NCBI RefSeq assembly: GCF_003231495.1
Contig: NZ_PQWO01000001.1
Location: 300,001 to 332,000 of the forward strand
Length of the DNA stretch: 32,000 bases
From: Acaryochloris thomasi RCC1774
GTDB lineage: Bacteria > Cyanobacteriota > Cyanobacteriia > Thermosynechococcales > Thermosynechococcaceae
Direction: 5' to 3'
Under the pieces are notes generated by a model that made no database searches, was not told the DNA's origin, and saw only the letters and a program-made list of their open reading frames with translations. Both the position numbers and the translations under genes were made by a program. Below, in pieces: positions 1,781-29,381 of the stretch. Numbering within the stretch: position 1 is the stretch's first letter; each line of letters begins with the position of its first letter.

Positions 1781-2419
1781 CTAGTCATCTAGACGCACAA
1801 GGCCCCGGCGCAGTGCGGCAATCACAGCTTGGGTACGGTCGTTGACGCCCAGCTTCTGAAAAATATGGTTGATGTGAAACTTGACGGTTCCCTCAGAGAT
1901 GTTGAGAGCTTTGGCAAGGGCGGGGGTGCTGGTGCCTAACACCATCAGATTGAGAACGTCCTGTTCTCGTTCAGTTAACTCTTCGGTATCCATTCGCTCA
2001 GCCAGTTTGAGAGCGACGTTTGGAGGCAGGTAGCGTTTGCCTTTGTGAACTGTACGAACGGCATCGACGAGATCTTCAAAATCAGCATCCTTAAGAATGT
2101 AGCCTCTGGCTCCGGCCTGCAGCCCTCGGTAGATATCTTCGTCGGTGTCGTAAGTGGTGAGAATAATAATGCGAGCGTCGGGGCTGTATTCCCGAATACG
2201 GGTAATGGCTTCGACCCCTTCTAGGTTGGGCATCCGAAGATCCATGAGGGTGATGTCGGGCTGATGGGTGGCATAGAGGGCGACGGCTTCGAGGCCATCC
2301 TTGGCTTCGGCAACAATGGTAAAGTCGGGCTGGCGCTCCAGGATGGAGATGATGCCTTGACGAACGATGCCATGATCTTCAGTGACCATAATCGTGATGG
2401 GAGTTGCGGCAGTCGTCAT
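1781..2419 (-). CDS. NarL/FixJ-type response regulator (REC plus LuxR-type HTH)
   Basis: 212 aa. REC motifs are present: TEDH, ITLMDLRMPNLEG (acceptor Asp), IIILTTY and GYILKD. The C-terminal segment LTEREQDVLNLMVLGTSTPALAKALNISEGTVKFHINHIFQKLGV is a LuxR HTH. The start lies 17 nt after the stop of the HisKA_3 kinase. Confidence 0.95.
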   Translation of the reverse strand: MTTAATPITIMVTEDHGIVRQGIISILERQPDFTIVAEAKDGLEAVALYATHQPDITLMDLRMPNLEGVEAITRIREYSPDARIIILTTYDTDEDIYRGLQAGARGYILKDADFEDLVDAVRTVHKGKRYLPPNVALKLAERMDTEELTEREQDVLNLMVLGTSTPALAKALNISEGTVKFHINHIFQKLGVNDRTQAVIAALRRGLVRLDD

Positions 2420-2436: not shown

Positions 2437-5400
2437 TTACGGGGATAGAGGGATAACAATATCGAGGGTGGTACCAATATTTGGGGTGCTGAGTAGTTCA
2501 AAAGTGCCCTCAAAGTGGGCGGTACGTTCACGAATACCCAAGAGACCAAAGCCACCTTTTTGGGAAAGTTGGGTAGTGTCGAAGCCCTTGCCATTGTCTA
2601 TGACGCGGAGCTGAACTTGTTGTTGATTGGGTTGTGAGGTGAAACTCAGGGTAAGGTCAAGCTGAGTGGCTTGGGCGTAGCGTAGGGTATTGGTAACGGC
2701 TTCTTGGCTGATACGTAGCAGGTTGAGTTGAATATCATCCGGAAGGGGAATGGGATCACCTTCGAGATAAAAATGGGTTTCGAGGCCCGTGTCACGGGTC
2801 GTTTGGGTTAGGGTTTTGCGGAGGGCATCGGGAAGGGCATCGGTTTCTAGGGCGGCGGAGCGAAGAGAACGGACGGAGCGGCGCGCTTCAGAGAGTCCGG
2901 CACGGGCAAGGTCACGAGCGCGCCGGATATAGGTTTGGGCTTCATTGAAGTCTTCGAGGGTGGGTTCTGCTCCGTTTGCGGGGGTGGTGATGCCACGCAC
3001 AGCTTCGAGCTGCAAGGAAACACCAGTAAAGGTTTGAGCCAGAGTGTCGTGAATTTCGCGAGCGAGACGGTTCCGTTCGTTGACAAGGGCCGCACTTTGG
3101 TTTTGCTCTGCCAAACGGGTGAGCTGAATCGCAAGGGTGGCTTGGTTGGTGAGGGCTTGAATAAACTCAAGCTGACCATCGGTGAGACTGGTGCGATCTC
3201 GGAAGGCGAAGCCGATGAATCCAATGGGTTGATTACCGGCTTTCATGCGGGCGCAAGCCACATCACGATGCCCCTCTCTACGATGCCAGGGTATGCTCTC
3301 TGGCCACCAAAGGCTAAGCTCGCTCTCGTCCCAAGAGCCTAAGTCATCGAAGGTTAAGGGATTTGGAGCATCCAATATGGCCTGCCATGCTCCGGTCAGA
3401 TCTGCCGGGAAGGGATGTCGAAACATATCAGGGTCGGTGGGAGTAGCCCCCATATAAATATGACCGTCCTTAACTGCACAATGCTGTTTAAGCGTATGGG
3501 TTTCAGCATCATAGAGAAAAAGGTGCGTCTCACAAGCGCTGGTTTGCTGGGCAAGTTCTGCCAAAAGCAATCCTAGAAATTCATGTAATTCAGGATTTTC
3601 CGCTAAGGCCCCAATGGTTCGATTCAGGGATTCGTTGGCTTTAGCGAGTTCGGTAGCCTGTTGTTGGGCTGCTTGTTCTCGTTCTTGCTGCAGTAGAACA
3701 TCGCGCTCAGCCTGTTCTCGTTCGGCCCTCATCTGATCTCGATAGATAGCGCTGCCGATGCAGGTGGCGGCGGTGTTGAATACGGCGAGTTCTGCTGGGG
3801 TCAACTGCCTCACTTCTTTACAGTGATCCATGAACATGAGGCCCCAAAACTCAGCCTCAACAAACATGGGTACAGCATAGGTTGAGAGGGTATTGAGTTC
3901 TTGCATGGTGCTGCGGAAGGGTTCGTCTAACTCAGCGACGAGCCCCCCGACCCAGTGGTCTGCCATGAGTTGTCTAGACCAGTTTTCAAACAGGTTGGCG
4001 GGAAGCTGATTGATCTCGGGGTCAACAATTTGAGGGAGAGTGTTGGGGGAGTCCCATTCGTAGAGAATGCGAAAGTATCCTAAGCCAGTAGGTTCTGAGA
4101 AGTGCTGCATGATGCCGATGCGATCGCAACCCAAGTTCACCCCAATGGTCTTAAGCGCAGCATCAACGCTGGCACCCACATCAGCATTAGCAAGCAACTC
4201 GCTGGCAGCCGCAGCAGTGGCGTCTAGCCAACGCTCTCGGGTCGAAAGAATTTGGTTGGCAGTTTCAAGTTCAACCGCACGGGCCGCACGTTCATGGGCG
4301 AGCAAAACTTCACGTTCAGCTGCTTCGTGGGCCTTTCGGGTCAGGAGTTCTGCTTGACGCAGCTGCTCGCGTTCAATAGCACCGCCAATGCAAGCAGCTG
4401 CCGTTTCTAGAGCTGCAAATTCAGCAGATATTCGTTGCGGGCTTCCCTGTCGATCAGAAAATCCTAGCATTCCCCAGTACTGCCCTGCGACAAAGATAGG
4501 AATACCATGCCTAACCTGAATGCCCGACTGAACTGAAAGTTGACGGAAAGCCTCAGGCATTTCATCTAGCGTGGCACTGAAGTTATGTCCTCGGCAAAGC
4601 AGTTGGTGCCATTCCCAAGCCTGAAGACAAGGTCCCTGCTCCAAAGGTTGCTCTGGGGTCGCTCGAGAGCCCCCTTGCTCAACGTCCCACTTGTACAAAA
4701 CAGCCCAGCGGAGAGAGGCCGGATCCTCAGGATCACCTGTCGTTTGTACAATGCCAAATTCATTGGTGTTGAGGGCTTCACCAACGGTTTGCAACACTAA
4801 GCTCACGGCTTGCTCAAAGTCTTCACTGGCGAGCAGAGAACTGGCCGCTGATGCCGTAGCCGCTAAAATGCGATCTCGCTTCTTGAGCACCAAATTATGA
4901 TTTTCGAGTTCAGTGGCGCGCAGGTTGGCTGCCGCTTCACGTTCTTTACGGGTCAGATCACGCTCAAGAGCGTTGCCGATTGAGGTAGCCGCCGTCTCTA
5001 AAACAGCAATTTCGGCCTCGCTCCAAACTCGCTCATAGATGCAGTCATCGAGTCCTAGTAAGCCCCACCATTCCCCTTCGACAGTGATGGGGACTCCGAC
5101 CAAGGAAAGCGCTTGGCCCTGGTCTCGTTTATCTAATCCATCAAGTTCGCTGGCTAGAAATTGGGTAGAGCGCCCTGCTTTGAGTGGGGCGGTTAGGTGG
5201 TCAGGGAATGCGTTGATGGGGACTGGGAATCGGCCACCCGCCTCCCGTTTTGTGGGAATGCCTGGAGCATTCCATTCGAGGGTGAGGTTGAAGATCAGTT
5301 CGTGGGTTTGCTCATCTTGTGAGTTTTGTAAGATATAGGCGCGGCATTGCCTTGTCCCTTCCCCTAAGATTTGCAGCATCGCGGGAAGAGCGGTGGAGAG

Positions 5401-8400
5401 ATCTTCGGTGGCAACTAGGCACTGGGCAGCAGCGTTAACGCTGTTGAGGAGACTGTCTCGCAGCTGTAGCTGCTGATTAAAGGTTTCCAGTTCAGTCGTG
5501 CGGGCTTGGGCAGCAGCTTCACGTTCTTTGCGAATGCGATCGCGGTCAATGGCGTTACCGATGCAGTCTGCCACCGTTTGCAGGGCAGCGAGTTCAGCGC
5601 TACTTCGCAGTCGTTGTTGGCGGCAGTCCCCAAACACGATCGTTCCCCAATAGTTGCCGCGCAGGATAATCGGAACGGAGTGTAAGGTTTGCACACCCAC
5701 AAAGGTCATGCTGCTGCGGAAGGGTTCTGTCATCTGCTCAGTTAACAGGCTAAATCCGTCTCCCCTTTGATGCAGGGCATAGAGCTGTTCGGCTCCGGCA
5801 TAGCTGCCCTGCATCGGCTCAGGATCGTGGATCTGAGCAACGGGTGTAATTCCAGGGGCTGTCCATTCATTAATGACGCGCCAGTGTCCTGGTTCTGTCT
5901 CAGTGAGATCTGCAAGATTTTCAGCAATGCCAACGCGATCGGTGCCCACGGCTTCACCAATGATTTGCATGGCTTCATTGAACGCTGTATCGAAGTCTAT
6001 GTCGGTGAGCAGGACATTTGAGACTGCTGCAGTGGCTTCCAGAATTAGATCACGCTCTTCTAAGGCTTGATTGTACGCCTCTAACTCTGTTGCTCGGATT
6101 AGAATAGCGGCCTCACGTTCTTTACGAATGCGATCGCGATCAATAGCATTACCAATACAGTTGGCGAGGGTTTTGAGAGCTTCGAGTTCAGCTTCACTGC
6201 GGCGAGTTAACTGGTGACAGTCATCAAAGGCAATTACTCCCCAAAAATTGTTGTCCACGTGGATGGGAATAGCGTAGGTAGACATAACGCCCAGCCCCAA
6301 TTGCTCGCTGCGAAAGGGTTCAGGTAGTTCATCAACGATGCCGCCAAAGGCATCTCCTCTTCGCAGAGCATCAACCGCAAATTCCATACCGCTGTCGCTG
6401 ATCCGTGCGAATGCAGGCAGATCCATTTGTCTGGGTGTGTTGTGGGTATTCCATTCATACAAGAATTGGTGATAGCCGGACTCTTGCTGAGAGATTGCTT
6501 CAAAATGCTCTCCCAAGTTGATGCGATCAACCTCTAGACCTTCACCGACAATTTGGAGGGCGGTATGGATGGCGCTGTCAAAGTCAATGGCTGTCAACAT
6601 CACGTTAGCAGCGGCGGCTGTCGCCTCTAGGATGCGATCGCGTTTCTCTAAAACTAAATTGTGGTTTTCCAACTCAACAGCACGAGTTTGGGCAAATTGT
6701 TCTCGCTCAAGTAATACATTCCGTTCGGCGGCTTCGCGAGCTTTGCGGATCTGTTCGCGTTCAATCGCGTTACCAATACAGCTTGCTGCCGTCTTGAATA
6801 CCGCTAGCTCCGCATCTGTTAGAAGTCTCTTTTCGCAGCAGTGATCAGTTCCAACGACCCCCCAAAAGCTACCTTCTACAAAAATAGGAATATTGTGTAC
6901 GGCCTGGGAGCCAACTTCTTGCTGCAGCTGTCGGAAACGTTCAGAGAAGTTATCGATTGTCTGCCCAAATGCCTTCCCATTAAGGTTGCGATAATACCAA
7001 TCTTCTATGCTCCAATCTTGCCAGCTGATATCCTGTAGACCTTCATAGTCAGACGTTTGTGAACTAATACCCGGTGAATCCCATTCGTACAGAATTCGCA
7101 AGAACCCGAGGGTTTCACCGACTGGATCATTGAATTGTTGAGCAACGAAAGCGCGATCGCATCCTACACTTTCGCCTAAGACTTGCAATGCTGAACTGAC
7201 TGCCGTATCAAAATCGCCATCACTGAGCAAGATATTTGAGGCCGTTGCTGTCGCTTCAAGGATGCGATCGCGTTTCTCTAAAACCTGATTGTGTGTTTCT
7301 AGCTCAGTGGCGCGCGTTTGAGCGAACTGTTCACGCTCTTTGATCACTGCTGTTTGTTTCGTTTCTTCAGCAAGCTGAGCCATTTGAATGGCAAGACCAG
7401 CTTGATCTGCAAGAGCGAAGATCAGTTCTTTCTCTTCAGGGGTAAGACTGTTTTTATCCGTGAAAGCTAAACCTAGCCAGCCGATCGCTCGATCGCCTGC
7501 TCTAAGGGCCAGTGCTGCCGCCTCTTGATGCCCCATCTGACGATGCCATTCCAAGGTTCCTGGCCAGAAGAGTGGCTCATCACTATTCATGCTAGCTAGG
7601 ATGATTTCCCTTGACTCACACATTAGGGCGTATGCAGGTGTGATGTTTGCAGGCACAGGAGCATGAAAAATTGGAGGGTCATGTTCAGCAGAGCCAGTTG
7701 TCATTTGGCCAAATCTGACGGATAGTCGCTGAGACAAAGTATCTGTCTTTGGATCGTGGAGAAAAATATGGCCTGCTGCTGCGCCAACTTGCTGGTTAAT
7801 CGTATCGACGACATGGCCCAAGAACACATCCAAATCATGTTCACTGGCTAACCGATTGAGGCTGTCTTTGAGAACGTTGCTGACCTGAGATAGCTCAATG
7901 GCCCGTTGCTGGGAGATGCGATCGCGTTCTTCAAGCAACGCTACCCGTTTAGTTTCTTCTGACAACTGGGTTAGCTGGATGGCCAAACTCATTTGGTGGG
8001 CCAGCGCGTAGCCCAGCTCAATTTGTTCATCGCTGAACTGCTGCGACTGGGGCAGATAAATCACCAGTGACCCAAAGGACGTTCCTCCCAAAGTCACCGG
8101 AATATTGACCTCCCGATGGGGCCGTACTCCCTGACGTTCGCACCAGCGCAACAACCTTGGATATACCTCAGCAACTAAGGGATCAGCCGCCAAATCATCA
8201 ATTAAGAAATGAGTGAGCCGTTCCTGAAGTTGCTCCTCATTGACCAGTTCTGACAGCACGGCAAACCCTTCAAGGCCAGGGTGCCCAGCCAGTTGCTCAG
8301 CAGTTGCAATTTCTCCCTGAACTGCAGCCTGCTCTATGTAGGCCACACTTTGTTCACTATGATGCCAATATTCAACTAAGGGCGCATTAAACTGCTGCGA

Positions 8401-10923
8401 TGCTGCCTGCAATACATAGCCGATGAAACGCTCTAACTCTGGCTCAGCAGCCAATGTATCTAATGTCTCTTTGAGAACATCGTTTGCTTTGGCCAGTTCT
8501 GCAACCCGATTTTGGGCCGCCTGTTCCCGCTCCTGAACAATTGCAGACTGTCGACTCTGTTCAGCTAAGTGAGTGAGCTGAACAGCTAAAGCGACCTGAT
8601 TGGTGAGGGCATAGCCTAGCTGTACTGCATGCTCTGAGAATGTTTGTCCTTCAGGTAATAAAACAGCGATTGACCCATAGGACCGATCGCCAAGGATAAC
8701 CGGAAAGTTAATTGCTTTATCTACGGGGTGAGTTACGCCATGCTGTTCACACCAAGTCCATACGTTTTGCACAATAGGAGAAGCAAATGGATTGTTGAGA
8801 GAAAAATCTGCCTCAATATGCTGAGTACGATGCAAAAGTTTTTCGTTATGGATTAATGGCGGCGGCACCGGAAAACCCTCAACGCCGTGATGCCCTACAA
8901 GCTTTTCACTGACTAAGATTTCTCCATTTACAACAGCCAGCTCTAGGTATGCAGTTTTATCTTCATGCCGCCAGTATTCTAAAAGAGGTGCATTGAATTG
9001 CTGCGCAATGGCTTGCAATACGTAGCCCAAAAAACGTTCCAGCTCTGGCTCAGTTGCCAATGTGTCTAAGGTTTCTTTGATGACATCATTAGCTTTGACA
9101 AGTTCTGTCACTCGGTCTCGGGCTGCCTGTTCGCGCTCTAACAACACATTGCGCTCGGCAGCTTCGCGGGCTTCGCGATTTTGTAGCTCTGCATCACGAA
9201 GTCGTTCGCGTTCAATAGCACTTCCAATACAGTCGGCAACAGTTTTTAAAACCGCTAGTTCAGCATCGCTTCGCTGTCGTGATACGCGACAATCGTCAAA
9301 GTAAATAATGCCCCAGTAGCGCCCCTGCAGCAGGATAGGAACCACGTGCATTGACTGTACGCCAATCTTTTGTTGAATATTGTGCAAGGGTCCGGATAGA
9401 TCATCGATCAAGAAACTAAATCCTTCGCCCCGAATAAACTGTGCATAGTGTTCTGCAACGCCTTCATAGGAACCCTGCATCAGTTCAGGATGATGTCTAT
9501 GTGCAACCAAGGCGGTGTGGGGAGAGTTCCATTCATAGACAACCTGCCACAGCCCAAAAGATGTCTCTGACGGATTTTCAAGATGTTCAACGATGCCCAC
9601 CCGATCGGTGTCAACGGCTTCCCCAACAATTTGCAGGGCTGTGTTGACAGCCTGATCAAAGTCTTCAATCGTGAGCAGAATATTTGCCGCCGCTGCTGTG
9701 GCTTCTAAGATGCGATCGCGCCCTTCTAAAACCTGATTGTGGGCTTCTAGCTCAGTCGCACGGGCCAAGGCAGTGGCTTCCTTTTGTTTTAGATTGCGAT
9801 CGCGTTCAATCGCATTCCCGATACAGGTCGCCGCCGTCTCTAAAACTGCAATTTCAGCATCAGACCAAACTCGCTCTGTAGTGCAGTCATCAAAACCCAG
9901 TACGCCCCACCACTGACCTGCCACCGAAATTGGAACCGCGACTAAGGATTGAGTTTGGCCCGCTACATTTACATCTCGTGCAACACCATCAAGGTCGCGA
10001 GTTAGAAGCTTGACCACTTGCCCTTGCGACATTGACTCGACAAGATGTGATGGGAAGGCATTCATTGCAAGAGGTAACGCATCGGCAACCACCGTCGAGG
10101 CAGGAATGCCGGGTGTTGTCCACTCGTAAGGGAGAGCCCAAAGAATCTCTTTTGTTTCAGGATCGAGAAGATTCTCAAACACATAAACTCGGTCTTGCTG
10201 AGTTCCTTCCCCTAAAATCTTGAGTGCTTCATGAATGGTCTGAGCAAAATCCTCACTGGCCACCAAACATTGTGCTGCCGCATTGACGCTGTTGAGTAAT
10301 GCATCCCGCTGCTGTAGCTGCTGGTTAAAGCTCTCCAAATCAGCCAGACTTGCTCGCCGCTGCAGCGCTCCTGCAAAGTTGGCTGCCGCCGTCTCAAGTA
10401 CCGCAATCTCTGCCTCGCTCCACACTCGTGCAGTGGTGCAGTCATCAAAGCCAAAATTGCCCCAATATATACCTTGTATAAAAATCGGCACCGTCAATAC
10501 TGACAGCGCCTGTTCTTGTTTCTGTTTCGCTTGGCCGGCTGCTGACATTTCCTGGGCCAGCTTTTGTACTGAGCGACCAGCCTTTAGCTCATTGAGCCAA
10601 TCGCGATAGCCGTCAATTTCGCTATACAACATCGGGTATTGGCCCGATATTTCACGACTTTTCACGACCTCTGGGACGGTCCACTCATAGGGGCAGGTCG
10701 CAAATTCTCTTTGGGTTTGAGGATCAACGTGGTTTTGGTAGATGAAGATGCGATCTATGCCAGCGGAGGTTGCGATCGCATCCAACGCCCCGTTCACTGC
10801 CGCATCAAAATCTGCGACAACTAAGAGCCGCCGTGCTGCTTCGGCGACCCCACTCAGCAGCGCATCTCGTCGCTGCGGCTCATCGGGTGGAGAGGGTAAA
10901 TGTCCGTTCGCCGTCGCAGTCAT
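2437..10923 (-). CDS. Giant multi-GAF sensor histidine kinase: 13 tandem GAF modules, then HisKA_3, then HATPase_c. No TM segment.
   Basis: One uninterrupted 8.5-kb ORF. The track start at 10941 is a TTG, and the first ATG is at 10923 (MTATANGH...). The GAF C-terminal signature (VPI..G..WG..FDDC....W...E...L...A..IG.AI.R, or the variant G.L..AF......L......L...LA.Q..LAIQ...LAE) occurs 13 times. The C-terminus has LAREIHDTLAQTF (HisKA_3 H-box, His codon at 3049-3051) and VIDNGKGF...GGFGLLGIRER (HATPase). Confidence 0.95.
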   Translation of the reverse strand: MTATANGHLPSPPDEPQRRDALLSGVAEAARRLLVVADFDAAVNGALDAIATSAGIDRIFIYQNHVDPQTQREFATCPYEWTVPEVVKSREISGQYPMLYSEIDGYRDWLNELKAGRSVQKLAQEMSAAGQAKQKQEQALSVLTVPIFIQGIYWGNFGFDDCTTARVWSEAEIAVLETAAANFAGALQRRASLADLESFNQQLQQRDALLNSVNAAAQCLVASEDFAQTIHEALKILGEGTQQDRVYVFENLLDPETKEILWALPYEWTTPGIPASTVVADALPLAMNAFPSHLVESMSQGQVVKLLTRDLDGVARDVNVAGQTQSLVAVPISVAGQWWGVLGFDDCTTERVWSDAEIAVLETAATCIGNAIERDRNLKQKEATALARATELEAHNQVLEGRDRILEATAAAANILLTIEDFDQAVNTALQIVGEAVDTDRVGIVEHLENPSETSFGLWQVVYEWNSPHTALVAHRHHPELMQGSYEGVAEHYAQFIRGEGFSFLIDDLSGPLHNIQQKIGVQSMHVVPILLQGRYWGIIYFDDCRVSRQRSDAELAVLKTVADCIGSAIERERLRDAELQNREAREAAERNVLLEREQAARDRVTELVKANDVIKETLDTLATEPELERFLGYVLQAIAQQFNAPLLEYWRHEDKTAYLELAVVNGEILVSEKLVGHHGVEGFPVPPPLIHNEKLLHRTQHIEADFSLNNPFASPIVQNVWTWCEQHGVTHPVDKAINFPVILGDRSYGSIAVLLPEGQTFSEHAVQLGYALTNQVALAVQLTHLAEQSRQSAIVQEREQAAQNRVAELAKANDVLKETLDTLAAEPELERFIGYVLQAASQQFNAPLVEYWHHSEQSVAYIEQAAVQGEIATAEQLAGHPGLEGFAVLSELVNEEQLQERLTHFLIDDLAADPLVAEVYPRLLRWCERQGVRPHREVNIPVTLGGTSFGSLVIYLPQSQQFSDEQIELGYALAHQMSLAIQLTQLSEETKRVALLEERDRISQQRAIELSQVSNVLKDSLNRLASEHDLDVFLGHVVDTINQQVGAAAGHIFLHDPKTDTLSQRLSVRFGQMTTGSAEHDPPIFHAPVPANITPAYALMCESREIILASMNSDEPLFWPGTLEWHRQMGHQEAAALALRAGDRAIGWLGLAFTDKNSLTPEEKELIFALADQAGLAIQMAQLAEETKQTAVIKEREQFAQTRATELETHNQVLEKRDRILEATATASNILLSDGDFDTAVSSALQVLGESVGCDRAFVAQQFNDPVGETLGFLRILYEWDSPGISSQTSDYEGLQDISWQDWSIEDWYYRNLNGKAFGQTIDNFSERFRQLQQEVGSQAVHNIPIFVEGSFWGVVGTDHCCEKRLLTDAELAVFKTAASCIGNAIEREQIRKAREAAERNVLLEREQFAQTRAVELENHNLVLEKRDRILEATAAAANVMLTAIDFDSAIHTALQIVGEGLEVDRINLGEHFEAISQQESGYHQFLYEWNTHNTPRQMDLPAFARISDSGMEFAVDALRRGDAFGGIVDELPEPFRSEQLGLGVMSTYAIPIHVDNNFWGVIAFDDCHQLTRRSEAELEALKTLANCIGNAIDRDRIRKEREAAILIRATELEAYNQALEERDLILEATAAVSNVLLTDIDFDTAFNEAMQIIGEAVGTDRVGIAENLADLTETEPGHWRVINEWTAPGITPVAQIHDPEPMQGSYAGAEQLYALHQRGDGFSLLTEQMTEPFRSSMTFVGVQTLHSVPIILRGNYWGTIVFGDCRQQRLRSSAELAALQTVADCIGNAIDRDRIRKEREAAAQARTTELETFNQQLQLRDSLLNSVNAAAQCLVATEDLSTALPAMLQILGEGTRQCRAYILQNSQDEQTHELIFNLTLEWNAPGIPTKREAGGRFPVPINAFPDHLTAPLKAGRSTQFLASELDGLDKRDQGQALSLVGVPITVEGEWWGLLGLDDCIYERVWSEAEIAVLETAATSIGNALERDLTRKEREAAANLRATELENHNLVLKKRDRILAATASAASSLLASEDFEQAVSLVLQTVGEALNTNEFGIVQTTGDPEDPASLRWAVLYKWDVEQGGSRATPEQPLEQGPCLQAWEWHQLLCRGHNFSATLDEMPEAFRQLSVQSGIQVRHGIPIFVAGQYWGMLGFSDRQGSPQRISAEFAALETAAACIGGAIEREQLRQAELLTRKAHEAAEREVLLAHERAARAVELETANQILSTRERWLDATAAAASELLANADVGASVDAALKTIGVNLGCDRIGIMQHFSEPTGLGYFRILYEWDSPNTLPQIVDPEINQLPANLFENWSRQLMADHWVGGLVAELDEPFRSTMQELNTLSTYAVPMFVEAEFWGLMFMDHCKEVRQLTPAELAVFNTAATCIGSAIYRDQMRAEREQAERDVLLQQEREQAAQQQATELAKANESLNRTIGALAENPELHEFLGLLLAELAQQTSACETHLFLYDAETHTLKQHCAVKDGHIYMGATPTDPDMFRHPFPADLTGAWQAILDAPNPLTFDDLGSWDESELSLWWPESIPWHRREGHRDVACARMKAGNQPIGFIGFAFRDRTSLTDGQLEFIQALTNQATLAIQLTRLAEQNQSAALVNERNRLAREIHDTLAQTFTGVSLQLEAVRGITTPANGAEPTLEDFNEAQTYIRRARDLARAGLSEARRSVRSLRSAALETDALPDALRKTLTQTTRDTGLETHFYLEGDPIPLPDDIQLNLLRISQEAVTNTLRYAQATQLDLTLSFTSQPNQQQVQLRVIDNGKGFDTTQLSQKGGFGLLGIRERTAHFEGTFELLSTPNIGTTLDIVIPLSP
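3150..10870 (-). repeat. Intragenic tandem array of 13 modules, each about 600 nt (coiled-coil linker plus GAF), inside the giant kinase
   Basis: The WG...C/AF signatures fall at roughly 10445, 9890, 9295, 8670, 8075, 7470, 6850, 6225, 5630, 5045, 4460, 3825 and 3205, a spacing of about 555-635 nt. An exact 26-nt repeat, aggatgcgatcgcgtttctctaaaac, occurs at 6629-6654 and 7259-7284, exactly 630 nt apart. A related stretch begins at about 9711. Confidence 0.8.
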
Positions 10924-11468
10924 AGTCGCGCTTGCCAGCAATAGAGACAGTCAATCAGTGACTCGATTTTCTCATGCAGTGGCTTTCCTTATCTTGCTTG
11001 CACGTCCTGAAAGCCAGTGACAGTAGACTTATTCTAATGACCCACGGCGTATATGTTAATCTTGCCCATTACGGCAAAGCAGTCTACCTAATTCTTGTTG
11101 TCCTCTATTATATTCTTGCGAAATCGCTCCACACGTATTCCGTCATACAGCCACCGAGAGAGACGTGAAGCGCAGCATCATTTTGTTTTTAAAGCTGTAA
11201 TCCCAGCTATACACCCACAATTAGATCAAATCGCGGACCTATAGCCATCAGAAAGTTATATTCAGATTTTATCTCTGTCTTAGAGGGTAAAACTGCAGAA
11301 AACGCAAATATGAGATAGCTATCGGTGATTAGCGACCCTAGCCGATCGATAGGGAAACAAGCCTTGCGATCGCTCAGCAAACATCCTGCGTTTGCGGTAG
11401 TCGTGTTTTCTAGAGCTATCTCTGACGATGGTAGAAGTAATACCCCCAACCCCGATGGGAATATCGAC

Positions 11469-12047
11469 ATGCCACTCCAGGAAACGATGCCAACCATCAA
11501 AGATGTTGACCACACCCGAGGCTCGTTATCGGCAGCTCTATTAATGATGACCTATGGTGATTATCAATGTCCCCAGTCTGGAAAAGCCCATCAAGCGGTA
11601 GAAAGACTACGCCACGTCCTCGGTAATCAGCTATGCTTTATTTTCCGCCATTTCCCAAGACCCGAAATTCATGCTCAATCTCAGAAAGCAGCAGCCATCG
11701 CTGAGGCTGCCGGAAGCCAGGGTAAGTTCTGGGAAATGCACGACAAGCTATTTGAAAATCAACAGGCCCTCGATGATGCCTCTCTCGTCGCATATGCCGA
11801 TGAACTAGGACTGAATATCTGTCAATTTTTGCAAGAGATCGGCGGGCACGCCCACCACTCACAGATCCAAGCCAATGTGGAAAGTGGTCAACAGCAAGGC
11901 GTTCAGGAGACACCCACTGTGTTTATCAACATCCGCCAGAAAGGTGCGGTAAACATCGAGCCCTTTATCCAACAATTTTTGGATGTCATCGATCAGAGTG
12001 GTGACTGCACGTCCGTTATCAGAGCATCAGCAGTAGATCGGTCATAA
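11469..12047 (+). CDS. DsbA-family thioredoxin-fold protein with a monothiol CPQS active-site motif
   Basis: The ORF track gives 11325..12047. The likely real start is ATG 11469 (MPLQETMPTIKDV) or 11487. The sequence LLMMTYGDYQCPQSGKAH...FIFRHFP...AAEAAGSQGKFWEMHDKLF..Q.....L..YA..LGL....F......H...I....ESG...GV..TPTVFIN fits the DsbA/thioredoxin_4-like pattern. Confidence 0.75.
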   Translation: MPLQETMPTIKDVDHTRGSLSAALLMMTYGDYQCPQSGKAHQAVERLRHVLGNQLCFIFRHFPRPEIHAQSQKAAAIAEAAGSQGKFWEMHDKLFENQQALDDASLVAYADELGLNICQFLQEIGGHAHHSQIQANVESGQQQGVQETPTVFINIRQKGAVNIEPFIQQFLDVIDQSGDCTSVIRASAVDRS

Positions 12048-12178: not shown

Positions 12179-13309
12179 CTACCGACGGAGAATCGCGGCT
12201 ATAGGAACGTTATCAAAAGGCATCTGCTCCAAAATATGAACCTGCCCGCCCCGCAGCCAGGTCTGTACTGCGGCAAAATTTAATAGATCGTCTAGCTCCT
12301 CGACCCTACTTTTTTGCAACTCAATCTTGTCAGTCTGTGGATTGAAGCGACCCCAGATCTGTCTCCCAGCAGCCACGAATAAAGTCTCAACTTGGCCATT
12401 GTGAGCCGCTCGAACAATACCCTGTAAATCGGTATGGGTTTGCTCTGTTGAAGATAAATATCGGTATTGTGAGATCGCCTGTTGCTTCACGTGCTGAAAA
12501 TGGGGGGCAACCGTCTGCCAAGCGTACTGATGCAGTGATTCAGAACTGAGCAATTCTTGATTATCTGCTCTGCATGTATGAAGTATAGACGTACAGGGAT
12601 TAGCACGCTGATAAATAGAACACAGAGCTTCCGTCCCCATCAAGAGCAAAGGTATCTGCGGATCATGCCGCCAAGACATCACTCGCTCATTGATCTTTTG
12701 AAAGCGGCGAAAAATTTCACTATCTGCGCGGTCAAGCCCTTGTCTCTGATCAACAGGAGAATGGCTGATGGTACTGCGATCGTAACGTTGAAGTTGTTCT
12801 TCAAAATTGTCGCGGAGTAAGACTTTCGCAAGACTTTGAGGCACGTCCGCTAGATTAAGGGGTTCAATGGAGTGTTGAGTTGCCCGAAAGAGTCGGGGCT
12901 GATTTTGGTGCACCGCCAGAATTAAAAATTTCGTGTTCTCCGTGAGCAGTGGCAGCAAAGGTTTGAGATGAAAGCGATGGGTAACAATGGCCAAGGTTCG
13001 GAAACGGATGGGCAGTGAGTAGGTGCGAAATATCTCTGGACTACAGAAAATTGCCAGCCCCTGCCGCTGCTGCCCAAAGTCATGCTGCTCAATCAGTGCC
13101 TTCAATGATCTAAGCAGCGCCACGGCATCGAATGGGAACCATTTTCCGGTTGCGAGCTGGACCTGAACCTCGTTGAGTAGACGCCTCAAACGGATAGGAG
13201 CAGAGGGAGCCTGCTGTTCTGTCAAGTCAGTGGGCATATAGATCGAGACCCGGGGTCTACCCGTTGACTCCATCAATTCCTTTAGTTGGGTCTCATGTAG
13301 AAATGTCAT
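12179..13309 (-). CDS. Hypothetical protein, candidate bacterial eRF1/Pelota-like (baeRF-type) domain protein
   Basis: The ORF track start at 13330 is a GTG, and the first ATG is at 13309 (MTFLHETQLKELMESTGRPRVSIYMPT...). The N-terminal VSIYMPT...IRLRRLL, the mid-protein HRFHLKPLLPLL and the C-terminal LRGGQVHILEQMPFDNVPIAAILRR resemble baeRF families as I recall them. The C-terminal part matches the eRF1/Pelota domain-3 ending GG..AILR[YF]. This is recall only and no HMM search was run. Confidence 0.65.
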   Translation of the reverse strand: MTFLHETQLKELMESTGRPRVSIYMPTDLTEQQAPSAPIRLRRLLNEVQVQLATGKWFPFDAVALLRSLKALIEQHDFGQQRQGLAIFCSPEIFRTYSLPIRFRTLAIVTHRFHLKPLLPLLTENTKFLILAVHQNQPRLFRATQHSIEPLNLADVPQSLAKVLLRDNFEEQLQRYDRSTISHSPVDQRQGLDRADSEIFRRFQKINERVMSWRHDPQIPLLLMGTEALCSIYQRANPCTSILHTCRADNQELLSSESLHQYAWQTVAPHFQHVKQQAISQYRYLSSTEQTHTDLQGIVRAAHNGQVETLFVAAGRQIWGRFNPQTDKIELQKSRVEELDDLLNFAAVQTWLRGGQVHILEQMPFDNVPIAAILRR

Positions 13310-13708
13310 TGATGTAGATTGCCACGGCACTCACGCAAGTCATACTGGCACCGGGGACCGACTCTGCAATACTCTCTGAAGCTGCCGCAGCGCTGTAAAC
13401 CTCAAAATCCTGCCAACTAGAGATCCATAGCCTCACCGAGTTGCCGAAGCTGTGAATGTATCTATATACAATCTAGGAGAACAATGCCTGAGCAAGCATC
13501 CACCATTGGTTATAAATAGAACTAATACTTAGAATCCATATTTCTTATGTTTCTGAGCAAGCGGGCTTTCGAGCAGCTCAGCTCGCTTCTCGATTAATCA
13601 CCATAACTTTTGCGCATGTTTACCAGCACCGCCTGCTTTACAAAGTTATGGACCGTATACTGTGACTACCGTGCCCTGTCGATGTAAGTCGAGCGAAAGA
13701 ATGCCAGC

Positions 13709-16300
13709 ATGACCGATTCCCTACTCAGCAGTAGAATTTTAATCGTGGATGATTCGGAGAGTGATCGGGCGATTTGTCGTCGGTACTTAAAAGCGTCGAG
13801 AACTTGGAATTACGACATCTTGGAATGTGAGTTAGGAGCCGAGGCTCTGGCACTCTGCAAGCAAGAGCAGCCTGATATCGTACTGCTCGACTACCGATTG
13901 CCGGACACCAATGGCCTAAAACTTCTGCAAGATCTGATCGTACAACTAGAGATACCGCCCATTGTGATTGTGCTCACCAGCCAAGAGGATGAAGAAATTG
14001 CTGTAGCAGTCATAAAAAATGGTGCCAAGGATTACCTCATCAAAGGGCAGCTCACGCCAGAAAAACTAGAAAGGTCCATTGCCCGTGCCCTAGCGGAGCA
14101 AACCCTGCAGTCACAGATTCAGCGCCAGCGGCAGCAAAACGCGCTGTTTGCCGATCTGGCCTCGGGTATCAATCGTGCGGTTGAACTCTCACAAATATTG
14201 CAGGCTGCGGTGGATGGCGTTCGTCGATTGCTGAGGTGCGATCGCACCCTTATTTACCAGTTCGAACCCGACATGAGCGGGACCACAGTAGCTGAGTCAG
14301 TCTTACCAGAATGGAGCGCAACCCTCGGCTACCAGCTAGAGGACAATTGCTTCCAGGGGGCCCAAAGCTATCAAGCTGAGAAATATCTGCAGGGCCATAA
14401 GATGGCGATCGCAAACATTGCCGAGAGCCATCTGTCTGTCTGTCATATCAAGATGCTGCAGCGGTTTCAGGTCAAGGCCAGTCTTGTGGTTCCGATTATC
14501 GATACAGCAAACGTAACGGGTACGACCAGGCTGTGGGGATTGCTGATTGCTCACCATTGCCAGACGATACACAACTGGACTGCGGAAGAACTGAATTTGT
14601 TGGGTGAAATCTCGGTGCAGGTTGCGATCGCAACACAGCAGGCCGCACTGACCACAAGCTTGAAGATCAGCCTGGAAAAACAGCAAAAGACAGAACAAGC
14701 GCTGCAGCAAAATCAGACCCAACTGCAGGCGATCTTAGATAACGCCCCGTCGGTGATTTACCTCAAGGAACCGGAAGGGCGTCTTCAGCTCATCAATCAG
14801 GAATTTCAAACGATCTTTGGTCTCTCGGAAGCAGAGGCAATTGGCAAAACCGATGCTGAGCTATTTCCTCCAGAGGTCGCTGCTGAATTCGGGATCAATG
14901 ATCGCCAGGTTGTTGCTTCGGGCCAGCCCCTATTTACAGAAGAGGTTGTTCGGCAGACCGATGATGAATGGCATACCTACCTATCGATTAAGTTTCCGAT
15001 TTTCGACGCTGAGGGGCAGGTCGTTCAGATCGGCGGCATTGCCACCGATATCACTGAGCGCAAGCAAATGGAGCAGGCACTCAGAACCTATCAGGAACGG
15101 ATGCACCGCTTTACGGAGTCCGATTTGATCGGCATTCTTTTTGGCGATACCAAGGGGGGAATTCAGGAGGCCAACGACGAGTTTTTGCGCATTGTCGGCT
15201 ACAGTCGCCAGGAACTCAAAAACAATCAGGTCCGCTGGGATGACCTGACGCCACCGGAGTACCTGCCGCTGGACCAGGCTAGGATCGCCGAAGCGCAGAA
15301 ACGGGGAAGCTGTACACCTTACGAGAAAGAATATGTTCGCAAAGACGGCAGCCGCATTCCGGTCTTGATTGGCTATATCTTGATGGGAGAGACTCGTACC
15401 CAGTCTGCGGCTTTTATTCTCGACATTACCGAGCGCAAACGAGCCGAACGAGAGCTGCAGACCATTAATACAGAACTAGAGCAACGGGTCGAAGATCGGA
15501 CGGCGGAGCTGACGGCATCAAATGCAGACCTGAAAGCAGAAGTGGTGGAACGACTGGGCAGTGAGCGTCAACTGAGGCAGACCGCTGAACAGCTGAGCAC
15601 CTCTAATCGAGCACTACAGGACTTCGCTTATGTGGCCTCCCATGATCTGCAGGAGCCACTGCGTAAAATTCAGGCTTTTGGCGATCGCCTCACAGTGAAG
15701 TATGCTCCACAACTTGGGGACCAAGGACGGGACTACCTGCGGCGGATGCAGAGTGCGGCCCAGCGGATGCAGATCTTAATCGATGATTTGCTCGCTTACT
15801 CCCGCATTAGCACCCGGGTTCAGCCCTTCGAAGCCGTCAATCTTGACGACATTGTGCGCGGCGTGCTCTCGGATCTTGAAGCCCGCCTCGAAAAAACGCA
15901 GGGTCAGGTTCAGGTCAACGCGCTGCCCACACTTGAAGCGGATCCAGTGCAGATGCGACAACTGTTCCAAAATTTGATTGGTAATGCCCTCAAATTCCAT
16001 CAGCCAGGCATCCCGCCTCAGATCGTCGTTTCTCAGTCTGCTGCTGCAGAGCAAGAAGTAGAGCTGCAGATTCAAGACAACGGTATTGGGTTCAACACCA
16101 AATATCTAGACCGCATCTTTACCCCCTTTGAGCGTCTCCACAGTCGGTCTGCTTACGAGGGCACCGGCATGGGACTGGCGATCTGTCGTAAAATCGTTGA
16201 GCGCCATGGCGGTCAGCTCACTGCGATCAGCGCTGATGGCGAAGGTGCAACGTTCATCATTACCCTGCCCTATACCCAGCCCCACGATCATGAGCAGTAG
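13709..16300 (+). CDS. Hybrid sensor histidine kinase: REC, GAF (candidate DXCF-class cyanobacteriochrome), PAS, PAS, HisKA, HATPase_c
   Basis: 863 aa. REC: ILIVDDSESD...VLLDYRLPDTNG...VLTSQ...DYLIKG. GAF: DRTLIYQF...VAESV...LEDNCF...YLQGHKMAIANI...SVCHIKMLQRFQVKASLVVPI...LWGLLIAHHC. Two PAS domains each end in DITERK. The H-box is FAYVASHDLQEPLRKI (His codon 15641-15643). HATPase motifs: DNGIGF and GTGMGLAICRKIVERHGG. Confidence 0.95.
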   Translation: MTDSLLSSRILIVDDSESDRAICRRYLKASRTWNYDILECELGAEALALCKQEQPDIVLLDYRLPDTNGLKLLQDLIVQLEIPPIVIVLTSQEDEEIAVAVIKNGAKDYLIKGQLTPEKLERSIARALAEQTLQSQIQRQRQQNALFADLASGINRAVELSQILQAAVDGVRRLLRCDRTLIYQFEPDMSGTTVAESVLPEWSATLGYQLEDNCFQGAQSYQAEKYLQGHKMAIANIAESHLSVCHIKMLQRFQVKASLVVPIIDTANVTGTTRLWGLLIAHHCQTIHNWTAEELNLLGEISVQVAIATQQAALTTSLKISLEKQQKTEQALQQNQTQLQAILDNAPSVIYLKEPEGRLQLINQEFQTIFGLSEAEAIGKTDAELFPPEVAAEFGINDRQVVASGQPLFTEEVVRQTDDEWHTYLSIKFPIFDAEGQVVQIGGIATDITERKQMEQALRTYQERMHRFTESDLIGILFGDTKGGIQEANDEFLRIVGYSRQELKNNQVRWDDLTPPEYLPLDQARIAEAQKRGSCTPYEKEYVRKDGSRIPVLIGYILMGETRTQSAAFILDITERKRAERELQTINTELEQRVEDRTAELTASNADLKAEVVERLGSERQLRQTAEQLSTSNRALQDFAYVASHDLQEPLRKIQAFGDRLTVKYAPQLGDQGRDYLRRMQSAAQRMQILIDDLLAYSRISTRVQPFEAVNLDDIVRGVLSDLEARLEKTQGQVQVNALPTLEADPVQMRQLFQNLIGNALKFHQPGIPPQIVVSQSAAAEQEVELQIQDNGIGFNTKYLDRIFTPFERLHSRSAYEGTGMGLAICRKIVERHGGQLTAISADGEGATFIITLPYTQPHDHEQ
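14185..14650 (+). other. GAF domain carrying both cyanobacteriochrome cysteine motifs: DXCF (DNCF, Cys214, codon 14348-14350) and the canonical CH (Cys245-His246, 14441-14446)
   Basis: DNCF is encoded at 14342-14353 and VCH at 14438-14446. The two Cys are 31 residues apart. The surrounding context, [S]VCH...L..FQVKA.LVVPI followed by WGLL.AHHC, matches bilin-binding CBCR GAFs. Confidence 0.65.
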
Positions 16301-16751
16301 TCCACAAAGCCAATCTGTTCCCATTCTGATGGCAGAGGATGACGAGGACGATCGCCTCCTCACCCAAGAAGCATTCGTTGAAAGCAGTCTAATCAACCCG
16401 CTACACTTCGTTGAAGATGGCGAAGAACTTCTTGACTACCTGCACCAGCGAGGCCGCTATACCGACGCGACCCAATCTCCGCGTCCGGGGCTGATCTTGT
16501 TAGACTTAAACATGCCCAAGAAAGATGGTCGTGAGGCGCTAATCGAGATCAAGGCAGATAAGAGTTTGCGACACATCCCGGTGGTGGTAATGACCACTTC
16601 GAAAGCAGAAGAGGACGTAGTGCGCTCCTATTCGTTGGGCGTGAGTTCATTCATCATCAAGCCGATCACTTTTGAGCAACTTGTTGAAGTGATTCAGGGG
16701 CTGGGTCGCTACTGGTTTGAGATTGTAACCCTACCGTCGGGAGAAAGCTGA
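16290..16751 (+). CDS. Single-domain response regulator (CheY-like, phytochrome-associated Rcp1-like family)
   Basis: The ORF track gives 16128..16751. The real start is probably ATG 16290 (MSSSPQSQSVPILMAEDDEDD), which overlaps the upstream kinase stop (16298-16300) by 11 nt. The segment PRPGLILLDLNMPKKDGREALIEIK...IPVVVMTTS...SFIIKP...YWFEIVTLP closely resembles Rcp1-type regulators. Confidence 0.9.
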   Translation: MSSSPQSQSVPILMAEDDEDDRLLTQEAFVESSLINPLHFVEDGEELLDYLHQRGRYTDATQSPRPGLILLDLNMPKKDGREALIEIKADKSLRHIPVVVMTTSKAEEDVVRSYSLGVSSFIIKPITFEQLVEVIQGLGRYWFEIVTLPSGES

Positions 16752-16755
16752 CAAT

Positions 16756-17970
16756 ATGGTGGATCAGGCTATTCAGGTACTGCTGGTTGAAGATGACGAA
16801 GATGATTATTTGTTAATTCGTGATTTGCTCTCTGAAGTGCCAGAACAGCGGTTCCAGCTTGACTGGGTAAAGACATTTTCCGAGGCCGCCGATCAGATTC
16901 AGCGACAGCCCTACAGCGTTTATCTGGTGGACTATCGGCTGGGTGAACAAAACGGCCTGGAACTGATGGCGTTGGTCAATCAGCAGGATGCTCCGGCCCC
17001 GGAGATTATTCTCAGCGGTCAGGGCGATCGCAACTTAGATATTACCGCTCTCAAATCTGGCGCTGCCGACTACTTAGATAAAGCAGACCTACAGGCATCA
17101 CTGCTAGAGCATTACATTCGAGCCTCCATTGAACGGAATCGCGCTCAACTGGCGCTGCAGGAGAGCGAAAAAAGATATCGGGACCTCTATCAGCAGGAGA
17201 AATTACTGCGCAGTGAGCTTGCACGAGCCAACACGGAGCTAAAGGATTTTGCCCATACGGCCTCCCATGATTTGCAGGAACCCCTGCGGGCGGTCTCTGG
17301 ACATATTTCACTCCTGCAGGACAAGCTGTTCGACGATCGCTCTGTTTTGACGCAGGATGCTGAGGTTCAAGAGTATTTCGGCTTCATCGCTGCCGGGACG
17401 CGGCGGATGCAGACGCTGGTTCACGATCTGCTGGTCTATTCTCGGGTCGGGACGCGGGATCTGGTGCTCAAAGACGTAGACTGTGGCGAAAGCGTGGAAG
17501 ATGCGATCGCAAACCTCCACATCGCCATTACTGAAGCTAAAGCCGAGATTATTTACGATGATTTGCCTCATTTGCGGGCCGACGCCACTCAGATGATGCA
17601 GTTGTTTCAAAATCTAATCAGCAACGCCATCAAGTTTCGGCATCCTGACACCCCACCCCACATCACAATTCAGGCAGACCCCATTCCGGCCGCGCAGTGG
17701 CGCTTTAGCATCACCGATAACGGCATTGGCATTGACCTTGAAGAGTGCGATCGCATCTTTAAAATTTTTAAGCGGCTACATACGCAGCAAGAGTTCGCCG
17801 GTACCGGCATGGGTCTGACCGTCTGCGAAAAAATCGTAGATCGACACGGCGGCAAAATTTGGGCCGAGTCTCAGCCAGGGGCAGGAGCGACCTTTTGGTT
17901 CATTTTGCCGCAGAATCCCCCAGAGCGAATTGACCCCCCGTTGCCCAACCCACCGACGTTAGATGCGTGA
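16756..17970 (+). CDS. REC-HisKA-HATPase_c hybrid histidine kinase (the receiver is the only input domain)
   Basis: 404 aa, starting 4 nt after the preceding stop. REC: VLLVEDDEDD...VYLVDYRLGEQNG...ILSGQ...DYLDK. A coiled-coil linker follows. H-box: FAHTASHDLQEPLRAV. HATPase: TDNGIGI...GTGMGLTVCEKIVDRHGG. Confidence 0.95.
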   Translation: MVDQAIQVLLVEDDEDDYLLIRDLLSEVPEQRFQLDWVKTFSEAADQIQRQPYSVYLVDYRLGEQNGLELMALVNQQDAPAPEIILSGQGDRNLDITALKSGAADYLDKADLQASLLEHYIRASIERNRAQLALQESEKRYRDLYQQEKLLRSELARANTELKDFAHTASHDLQEPLRAVSGHISLLQDKLFDDRSVLTQDAEVQEYFGFIAAGTRRMQTLVHDLLVYSRVGTRDLVLKDVDCGESVEDAIANLHIAITEAKAEIIYDDLPHLRADATQMMQLFQNLISNAIKFRHPDTPPHITIQADPIPAAQWRFSITDNGIGIDLEECDRIFKIFKRLHTQQEFAGTGMGLTVCEKIVDRHGGKIWAESQPGAGATFWFILPQNPPERIDPPLPNPPTLDA

Positions 17971-18204
17971 TGCCTTCGGAGCACGAGTTGTGCAAGAGAT
18001 CCGCTTTTAATAGGAGGTCTCCTTTGTTAAAGCCACAGCAACTGGCGTTAGCCCAATTGCTGCAAAAAGGTGTTTGTGAGTTGCGCTCCTTTTGAGGCAT
18101 GATCCGCTTCGACAACCTAACCAGCCGGAGAAATCCTGCAAACTTCTAGCGATCGCTGGGCAATAGGCAGGACAGCCTGCACAGAATTTTATCGGGGACG
18201 AACT

Positions 18205-18233
18205 TTGACGCAAGTATATATCTCTAATACTAT
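18205..18233 (+). promoter_or_regulatory. Candidate sigma-70-type promoter (TTGACG, 17-nt spacer, TACTAT) upstream of the third kinase gene
   Basis: TTGACG at 18205-18210 and TACTAT at 18228-18233, with an exact 17-nt spacer. It lies in the 338-nt gap that interrupts the kinase cluster, about 75 nt upstream of ATG 18309. This is a motif match only. Confidence 0.3.
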
Positions 18234-18308
18234 CTTTACAATTCTGTAATATTGTTAAGATGGGCTTGATATGCCTGTCGAAAACGATCGCATCCGAGTG
18301 ATGAATCT

Positions 18309-19424: not shown

Positions 19425-19487
19425 AGAAATCCGGCACAAATTAGTCCAGACAACCGCAACGCTCATCCAATACCTCTCTTAACAAAG

Positions 19488-19496
19488 TGTTACAAT
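19488..19496 (+). promoter_or_regulatory. Candidate extended -10 element (TGtTACAAT) upstream of the second single-domain response regulator
   Basis: tgttacaat at 19488-19496, about 105 nt upstream of ATG 19601. I found no convincing -35. This is a motif match only. Confidence 0.2.
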
Positions 19497-19600
19497 CTAG
19501 AAAACATTAGAAACAGCGCTTAGAGGTATCGTCCTCTGCTGTGCGGTGATTAACCAATTACTTGCTCGGTCTTACTCTCTTTCTAGGAATTTAAAGTCTT

Positions 19601-20056: not shown

Positions 20057-20078
20057 TCTCTCTATCTCAGACAGCAGT

Positions 20079-29356: not shown

Positions 29357-29381
29357 ATCAACAAACGCAATGATTGACTGC

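Follow-up and report, generated by a model that had tools for sequence, protein, structure and literature searches.

A long open reading frame (ORF) of the cyanobacterium Acaryochloris thomasi RCC1774 raises the question of how a single soluble histidine kinase might combine the states of thirteen GAF modules, arranged in series, into one phosphorylation output. The gene lies on the minus strand of a stretch of 32,000 nucleotides (nt) from contig NZ_PQWO01000001.1 (assembly GCF_003231495.1, positions 300,001 to 332,000), which is the whole stretch that was analysed and is referred to here as the window; all coordinates are those of the window. The answer that we favour, at a probability of about 60%, is that the product is a cytoplasmic, rod-shaped, homodimeric two-component kinase that would receive multiple inputs and signal along a helical spine. 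The protein belongs to a sizeable and undescribed family within a kind of enzyme, the soluble multi-GAF HisKA_3 kinases, that is already known.

Thirteen GAF modules and a single kinase core

The minus-strand ORF is uninterrupted over 2437..10941 and counts 2,834 codons from a TTG. An ATG at 10923, codon 7 of that frame, gives a protein of 2,828 amino acids (aa) that is identical to the deposited PZD74977.1 / WP_110984283.1 of A. thomasi RCC1774, an uncharacterised protein that carries the names 'DegS' (Prokka) and 'GAF domain-containing protein' (PGAP). Exact matches of neighbouring genes point to the same organism. Positions of modules and domains within the protein follow the numbering from the TTG.

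2437..10923, minus strand: poly-GAF sensor histidine kinase gene; stop codon at 2437-2439; an in-frame TTG at 10941 adds 6 aa

A whole-protein Pfam search scored the GAF family at 290 bits in 11 stretches, together with GAF_2 and GAF_3, and an internal phmmer comparison partitioned the protein into 13 modules. When the 13 segments were scanned singly, every one matched GAF or GAF_2 (Pfam PF01590 / PF13185), and 11 did so above the Pfam gathering score; modules 4 and 11 were sub-threshold at 22.5 and 21.1 bits, and both are clearly homologous to sister modules, 5 and 3 respectively (208 and 156 bits in the internal phmmer comparison). Module starts are 187-215 aa apart (mean 201), and since no unassigned stretch is longer than 18 aa the module count is exactly 13. 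Two types of module are present, in the order AAABBBAAAAAAB, that is, nine of type A (1-3 and 7-12) and four of type B (4-6 and 13). In the following list, percentages refer to orthologues, P0002 being the closest relative of the protein and P0006 a protein of Acaryochloris marina.

10339..10905, minus strand: GAF module 1, type A, aa 13-201; orthologues in P0002 (82%) and P0006 (69%)
9760..10344, minus strand: GAF module 2, type A, aa 200-394
9166..9756, minus strand: GAF module 3, type A, aa 396-592; without a clear orthologue
8488..9111, minus strand: GAF module 4, type B, aa 611-818; divergent, WC replacing the WH motif of the family; below the Pfam cut-off when scanned alone
7879..8505, minus strand: GAF module 5, type B, aa 813-1021
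7288..7902, minus strand: GAF module 6, type B, aa 1014-1218; WH...GH motif kept
6718..7308, minus strand: GAF module 7, type A, aa 1212-1408
6094..6678, minus strand: GAF module 8, type A, aa 1422-1616; orthologue in P0002 (83%)
5500..6090, minus strand: GAF module 9, type A, aa 1618-1814; orthologue (86%)
4918..5496, minus strand: GAF module 10, type A, aa 1816-2008; orthologue (91%), dN/dS 0.05
4327..4914, minus strand: GAF module 11, type A, aa 2010-2205; without the DDC cysteine and without a clear orthologue; below the Pfam cut-off when scanned alone
3700..4275, minus strand: GAF module 12, type A, aa 2223-2414; orthologue (78%)
3028..3657, minus strand: GAF module 13, type B, aa 2429-2638; adjacent to the kinase, its final helix running into the dimerisation/phosphoacceptor (DHp) domain
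2851..3078, minus strand: HisKA_3 dimerisation/phosphoacceptor domain, aa 2622-2697; 52.2 bits (cut-off 24)
2443..2727, minus strand: HATPase_c catalytic domain, aa 2739-2833; 40.5 bits (cut-off 26.4); N-box QEAVTN, G1 box DNGKGF, G2 box GFGLLG
1781..2419, minus strand: NarL/LuxR-type response regulator (REC and GerE domains, 212 aa), 17 nt downstream of the kinase stop codon

The core is that of a HisKA_3 kinase (NarX/DesK type, HPK7). Its H-box reads REIHD and places the phosphoacceptor histidine at aa 2631 (nt 3049-3051). By sequence the core matches VraS, DesK and DevS (the last via the ATP-binding domain), and a model of the core superposes on VraS (TM-score 0.87 over the CA domain) and on DesK. 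Equivalog-level matches scored 70-98 bits overall against cut-offs of 450-578; with the core only, NarQ reached 79 bits (cut-off 553) and NarX 70 bits (cut-off 578). A nitrate sensor of the NarX/NarQ type proper was ruled out by these scores, far under the cut-offs, and by the absence of a transmembrane segment: none is predicted over the whole protein, where the highest Kyte-Doolittle average over 19 residues is 1.46 and no window exceeds 1.6. The architecture that the initial annotation had read from the letters alone was thus recovered in full, namely a single uninterrupted ORF of about 2,830 aa, 13 GAFs at a spacing of about 200 aa (rather than the far fewer that a hidden Markov model (HMM) search might have returned), one NarX-type core made up of a single HisKA_3 and a single HATPase_c domain, and no transmembrane stretch.

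The 212-aa NarL-type regulator is probably the cognate partner of the kinase, as gene order suggests. The pairing recurs in the related loci L002 and L005, and with at least one intervening gene in L001, L003 and L004; in locus L006 the contig ends before any regulator gene appears.

In short-read assemblies, repetitive units of 600 nt might be collapsed or expanded, and an array of this kind might also belong to a decaying pseudogene. That explanation is effectively refuted. The DNA of the modules is at most 73% identical between units, over at most 161 nt, and assembly collapse is therefore no concern. Moreover, an independent protein (P0049, partial) from a metagenome-assembled genome (MAG) aligns collinearly to aa 1527-2834 (93% identity over 1,306 aa, 6 gaps), intact orthologous ORFs of 1,571-3,147 aa are present in many assemblies, and the ratio of nonsynonymous to synonymous substitution rates (dN/dS) is well below 1. 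The array of 13 modules is not an assembly artefact.

Module turnover and ancestry in the family

A word-indexed search returned about 31 proteins that share this design and are 1,571-3,147 aa in length; they come from A. marina, Synechococcus sp. PCC 7335, Phormidesmis and marine cyanobacterial MAGs. Counted with purpose-built HMMs for the two module types, this first set of relatives has 6 to 15 modules, and the range of the family becomes 2 to 15 once matches from 1.84 billion cluster representatives are added. Relative P0001 has 15 modules in 3,147 aa, while P0003, P0004 and P0005 have 14 each; 16 of the retrieved proteins contain at least 10 modules, and about five clusters at 50% identity reach 10. 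The number 13 therefore belongs to the upper tail of the family and is not a record, so that the placing of this kinase at the extreme end of known architectures did not survive, given same-design relatives with 14 and 15 modules. The architecture is uncommon without being unique. In the literature, no description was found of 10 or more GAF domains in one protein or of a poly-GAF HisKA_3 family. The kinase-proximal module is of type B in 25 of 28 complete relatives. The type A profile, for its part, matched 3,286 cluster representatives at E <= 1e-30, which indicates that this type of GAF, lacking the chromophore cysteine as described below, is widespread in shorter arrays.

Modules 1, 2, 8, 9, 10, 12 and 13 have one-to-one orthologues (64-91% identity) in P0002, which has 12 modules in the order AABBAAAAAAAB, and the same seven are orthologous in the A. 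marina protein P0006 (57-77%). For modules whose synonymous sites are not saturated, dN/dS against the closest orthologue is 0.05-0.14, and the kinase core gives 0.06. In the segment that corresponds to the chromophore pocket of cyanobacteriochromes (CBCRs; profile columns 76-130), orthologues share 64.5% identity and paralogues of the same protein only 20%, the largest such contrast of any region. The initial annotation had spoken of 13 ligand-binding modules; this was an assumption, for which the module-specific conservation of seven is consistent with individual function, while the other six have no clear orthologue in the closest relative.

Two A. marina-type loci, L003 (4001-12274) and L004 (4001-12916), have flanks that are about 95% identical, whereas the interiors of their kinase genes are only 83% identical. 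L003 encodes 13 modules (AAAAAAAAAABBB) and L004 encodes 14 (AABAAAAAAAAABB), a difference made up of insertions and deletions of whole modules; the array of these two loci is a hot spot of structural variation. Judged from sequence comparison, the array is a series of individually conserved, non-equivalent modules that is subject to fast turnover of whole modules.

The analysis of the two module types covered 309 modules, 220 of type A and 89 of type B, from 32 family proteins. The two types are only remote relatives of each other (hhalign E 1.6e-5). Type A has the near-invariant motifs DR, EW, VPI, WG and D-x-C, with the cysteine conserved in 96% of the 220 modules; in the A. thomasi protein this 'DDC' cysteine is present in 8 of 9 type A modules and a second one (A-x-C-I-G) in 7 of 9. 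Type B is marked by W..WH...GH and ALTNQATLAIQLTRLAE. Modules 4 and 5 (7879-9111, minus strand) have W-C in place of the W-H of the family (85% His) and a degenerate GH motif downstream; they are the most divergent type B copies and have no close orthologues.

Against solved structures, the best matches of the type A profile are GAF domains of cyanobacteriochromes and phytochromes (E 2e-11 to 1e-4), among them miRFP670nano (E 2e-11), the far-red CBCR 6oap, NpR6012g4, Slr1393g3, AnPixJ, TePixJ, RcaE, Cph2 and SyB-Cph1. Type B aligns to the GAF of SyB-Cph1 and weakly to CyaB2 and to GAF-A of DevS, the last match being marginal (E 0.013-0.024) and limited to the last 55 residues, that is, the region of the C-terminal helix. 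The chromophore cysteine lies within 'TECH' in 6oap and within 'TECY' in miRFP670nano; gap-free HMMER alignments set both opposite 'PEPF' or 'TEPF' of type A. With the equivalence of the column resting on these two alignments, Pro occupies the canonical cysteine position in 145 of 220 type A modules, the others having Ala, Ile and similar residues, never Cys; at the neighbouring histidine column 116 of 220 have Phe, and the eight most frequent residues do not include His. The equivalent of the bilin cysteine column in type B is Cys in none of 89 modules. When a Cys-His GAF encoded elsewhere in the window is compared by hhalign, its CH falls within an insertion and not against Pro-Phe; under either alignment the region of the pocket helix has no cysteine, and a CH dipeptide occurs in the pocket helix of none of the 309 modules. 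The 'DDC' cysteine of type A is homologous to that of the 'NQC/HHC' motif of ordinary CBCR GAFs.

By these profile matches and alignments, both module types trace back to the bilin-binding cyanobacteriochrome/phytochrome GAF lineage and have lost its cysteine, and the modules are probably not covalent-bilin photoreceptors. That is, the earlier description of the GAFs as non-bilin holds in the sense of covalent attachment, the bilin cysteine being absent, and fails in so far as it suggested generic GAF domains, since they come from a photoreceptor lineage and fall into two subtypes. The CBCR GAF lineage thus has a large radiation without the chromophore cysteine. Two other identities were considered and rejected. 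Type B is not PHY-like: none of the 13 modules matched the PHY domain (PF00360) at E values up to 0.1, and in the type B model the last strand is followed by the last helix with no hairpin inserted, that is, no tongue. Binding of cyclic nucleotides by the modules was rejected for want of the NKFDE motif, for which neither the regular expression NK...F...DE nor a relaxed variant found a match anywhere in the protein.

The Cys-His GAF just mentioned belongs to an 863-aa hybrid kinase with the order REC-GAF-PAS-PAS-HisKA-HATPase (13709-16300, plus strand), 2.8 kb from the poly-GAF kinase and named 'Cph1-like' by Prokka. It contains 'SVCHIKML...VVPI...LWGLLIAHHC', the canonical Cys-His of bilin GAFs, and is a candidate cyanobacteriochrome; the EW, DR, VPI, WG and x-x-C motifs are common to this bona fide Cys-His GAF and to type A.

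Helical connectors and a proposed route of the signal

A monomer of modules 8-9 was modelled with AlphaFold2 from an alignment of 46 rows of A-A pairs (predicted local distance difference test, pLDDT, 93.2; predicted template modelling score, pTM, 0.70). The model consists of two GAF folds bridged by one continuous helix of 64 residues (residues 179-242), and its best fold matches are the GAF-PHY modules of the knotless phytochromes SyB-Cph1 and Cph2, other phytochrome sensory modules, and GAF-A/B of PDE6. All of these are parallel dimers on a helical spine. A second model, of module 13 (type B) with the kinase core, has a pLDDT of 78; in both models the secondary structure and the Foldseek matches fit the GAF fold.

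A zipper-like helix with the motif ELxxxNxxL(xxRDxxL) opens 12 of the 13 modules, with leucines at successive d positions and an asparagine at an a position; in type B the asparagine is conserved in 87 of 89 modules and the leucines in 87-89 of 89. This motif and the continuous helix of the model agree with the heptad-like linkers that had been noticed between the GAFs. When the linkers are measured from anchor to anchor across the family proteins, their lengths fall at discrete values:

B to B linker: 38 residues in 51 of 51
B to A linker: 31 or 38 residues
A to A linker: most commonly 17, 19, 24, 28, 35, 44, 46, 48 or 51 residues
Last anchor to phospho-acceptor histidine: 21 residues (18 proteins, terminal module of type B), 25 (9 proteins, terminal module of type B) or 29 (2 proteins, last module of type A)

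The favoured mechanism may be put as follows. The 13 GAFs would be strung along a helical spine in which the final helix of each GAF continues into the first helix of the next, and the ELxxxNxxL(xxRDxxL) segment at each junction, with its core asparagine, would favour a parallel, in-register homodimer. The terminal type B GAF would act as a fixed adaptor whose final helix leads into the HisKA_3 DHp domain, with the phospho-acceptor histidine 21 (or 25) residues further on. Conformational changes in the GAFs could then alter the register or the rotation of the spine, and such a shift would change the balance of kinase and phosphatase activities toward the adjacent NarL-type regulator and thereby transcription. 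Several non-equivalent modules might tune this balance. Since at least seven modules keep a conserved pocket of their own across species, several different small-molecule or protein inputs would be expected.

A number of points weigh against such a mechanism. P0002 offers no orthologue above 56% for modules 3-7 and 11, and with six of 13 modules lacking a clear orthologue and a module count that varies from 2 to 15, even between flanks that are 95% identical, many modules may be dispensable for sensing. The A to A linker lengths are spread over several heptad registers, which makes a single rigid register along the whole rod unlikely. The junction of module 13 with the DHp domain is modelled at low confidence (pLDDT below 50 at residues 186-192), and the pairing of the zippers is suggested by the motif and by analogy.

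The main rival is a mostly structural rod, in which sensing is confined to the kinase-proximal module or to a few modules, while the rest serve as a spacer, a ruler or a scaffold that positions the kinase or recruits partners. At about 5-6.5 nm per module the rod is estimated to be some 60-90 nm long. This reading is a serious minority possibility. It would readily accommodate module numbers from 2 to 15 within the same architecture, the 13 and 14 modules of the two A. marina-type loci with their nearly identical flanks, and the six modules without an orthologue above 56% in the closest relative; type B together with the core is also far more conserved than the array (73% mean column identity). 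What a rod of this kind explains less well is that the purifying selection on the anchor modules is as strong as that on the core (dN/dS 0.05-0.14), and that the pocket-equivalent region is the most specifically conserved part of each module, for which a pure spacer has no need.

Two further readings give the modules a specific sensory task. The protein could be a multi-chromophore sensor of light or of a pigment pool, binding a bilin or another tetrapyrrole non-covalently or via a non-canonical residue. The lineage itself speaks for this, as the closest solved relatives of type A are CBCR GAFs (miRFP670nano at 2e-11, 6oap, NpR6012g4, Slr1393g3 and AnPixJ), type B aligns to the GAF of SyB-Cph1, and the EW, DR, VPI, WG and x-x-C motifs recur in the Cys-His GAF at 13709-16300. 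Yet the canonical cysteine column of type A is never Cys, the histidine column is mostly Phe, there is no DXCF motif, and a single chromophore for all modules would fit poorly with pocket regions that are only 20% identical from module to module; a photoreceptor of this sort appears quite improbable. A thiol or redox sensor, in which the 'DDC' cysteine and the second cysteine of type A would report the redox state in connection with a DsbA-like neighbour, is to be regarded as highly improbable. The conservation of the first cysteine in 96% of 220 modules, the presence of the two in 8 and 7 of the nine type A modules, and a Thioredoxin_4/DsbA-like gene adjoining the kinase in the window and in L001-L004 had pointed that way. 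This reading was downgraded because the cysteine is inherited from the CBCR 'NQC/HHC' motif, so that its conservation needs no redox role; moreover, the DsbA-like gene is missing from the Synechococcus PCC 7335 locus, its product has CPQS rather than CxxC at the active site, and the loci that have it look like close relatives in which synteny may simply be inherited.

To return to the multi-input kinase, its strongest form would hold that most of the 13 GAFs bind different metabolites or non-covalent tetrapyrroles, that a coiled-coil 'bus' of about 60-90 nm merges their states into one phosphorylation output, and that gain, loss and shuffling of whole modules between strains reprograms the inputs. 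In this form the proposal is speculative and rather unlikely; if true, no natural signalling wire of greater length would be known, and the protein would amount to an experiment of nature in long-range allostery.

Among known systems, the poly-GAF kinase is closest in logic to DosS (DevS)/DosT of Mycobacterium tuberculosis and closest in ancestry to the cyanobacteriochromes. DosS and DosT likewise join soluble tandem GAFs to HisKA_3 and HATPase_c and act with a NarL/LuxR-type regulator (DosR), but they have two GAFs, of which GAF-A binds haem, whereas the 13 GAFs described here derive from a different, photoreceptor lineage. It is typical for cyanobacteriochromes and knotless phytochromes to have several GAFs arrayed in a single polypeptide, NpF2164 having about seven. 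This group (Cph2, SyB-Cph1, NpF2164, AnPixJ) provides the closest GAF relatives by profile, and the two-module model superposes best on the GAF-PHY of SyB-Cph1 and Cph2. In contrast to these proteins, the poly-GAF kinase has no chromophore Cys-His in any module and neither a PHY domain nor a tongue, its output is HisKA_3 where theirs is usually HisKA, MCP or GGDEF, and its array is about twice the longest found described, with no literature found on 10-14 GAF domains. PDE2/5/6 and Anabaena CyaB1/CyaB2, of which PDE6 and CyaB2 are among the fold and sequence matches, are parallel dimers in which a long helix connects GAF-A to GAF-B and relays ligand binding to a catalytic domain; they differ in having two GAFs and another output domain, and the NKFDE motif is absent from all 13 modules here. 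DesK, VraS, LiaS and NarX-NarQ have the same transmitter core (HisKA_3 and HATPase_c) and a NarL-type partner, but are membrane sensors with transmembrane, HAMP or P-box inputs, while the poly-GAF kinase has no transmembrane segment.

How sensors signal to kinases through helical linkers is a long-standing question, and most work on it uses one or two sensor modules. The present family is a natural series of 2 to 15 modules with fixed connector lengths, an invariant kinase-proximal adaptor and some modules that are conserved across species. Moreover, closely related strains differ by whole modules, so that the range of transmission, additivity and dependence on register could be tested by truncation and module swapping. 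The evidence so far contains none for an unusual mechanism, and the family is a good natural model for long-range signalling through helical linkers.

Neighbouring genes in the window

Upstream of the kinase gene, a promoter-like site was noted at about 108 nt from the ATG; it is weak evidence, one such site having been found where 0.6 are expected by chance, and the promoter and terminator scans gave no signal above chance.

11031..11059, minus strand: promoter-like site TTAACA-17-TAGAAT

The DsbA-like Thioredoxin_4 gene (11325-12047, plus strand) is divergent from the kinase gene, and it is this gene that also adjoins the kinase in L001-L004; its deposited start codons conflict (240 aa as against 192 aa). 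Genes for a DsbA-like protein and an AraC regulator recur beside the kinase in Acaryochloris-type loci, and the Synechococcus PCC 7335 locus has neither. This synteny counts as weak evidence. Further along, at 12179-13330 (minus strand), is a gene for a 383-aa protein with bacterial eRF1-like (baeRF family 3/7) domains and a partial match (118 bits, cut-off 330) to the NCBIfam 'AOC03_06830 family ribosome hibernation factor'; the exact sequence from its listed start codon was not found in the protein collection.

A dense one-strand phosphorelay cluster occupies 13709-22010 (plus strand). It begins with the Cph1-like hybrid kinase and continues as listed, a sigma-70 gene following on the opposite strand:

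16128-16751, plus strand: stand-alone REC; the listed TTG start overlaps the preceding gene
16756-17970, plus strand: REC-HisKA-HATPase
18309-19424, plus strand: REC-HisKA-HATPase
19601-20056, plus strand: REC
20079-22010, plus strand: REC-PAS-HisKA-HATPase-REC
22035-23009, minus strand: sigma-70 family gene

The region 23082-29383 holds four genes for mechanosensitive channels of the MscS family within 6.3 kb (23082-24230, 24227-25399, 26808-27695 and 28004-29383), and among them, at 25675-26811, a gene for a 378-aa protein that has no Pfam match and is named an ArsR-family regulator by NCBI.

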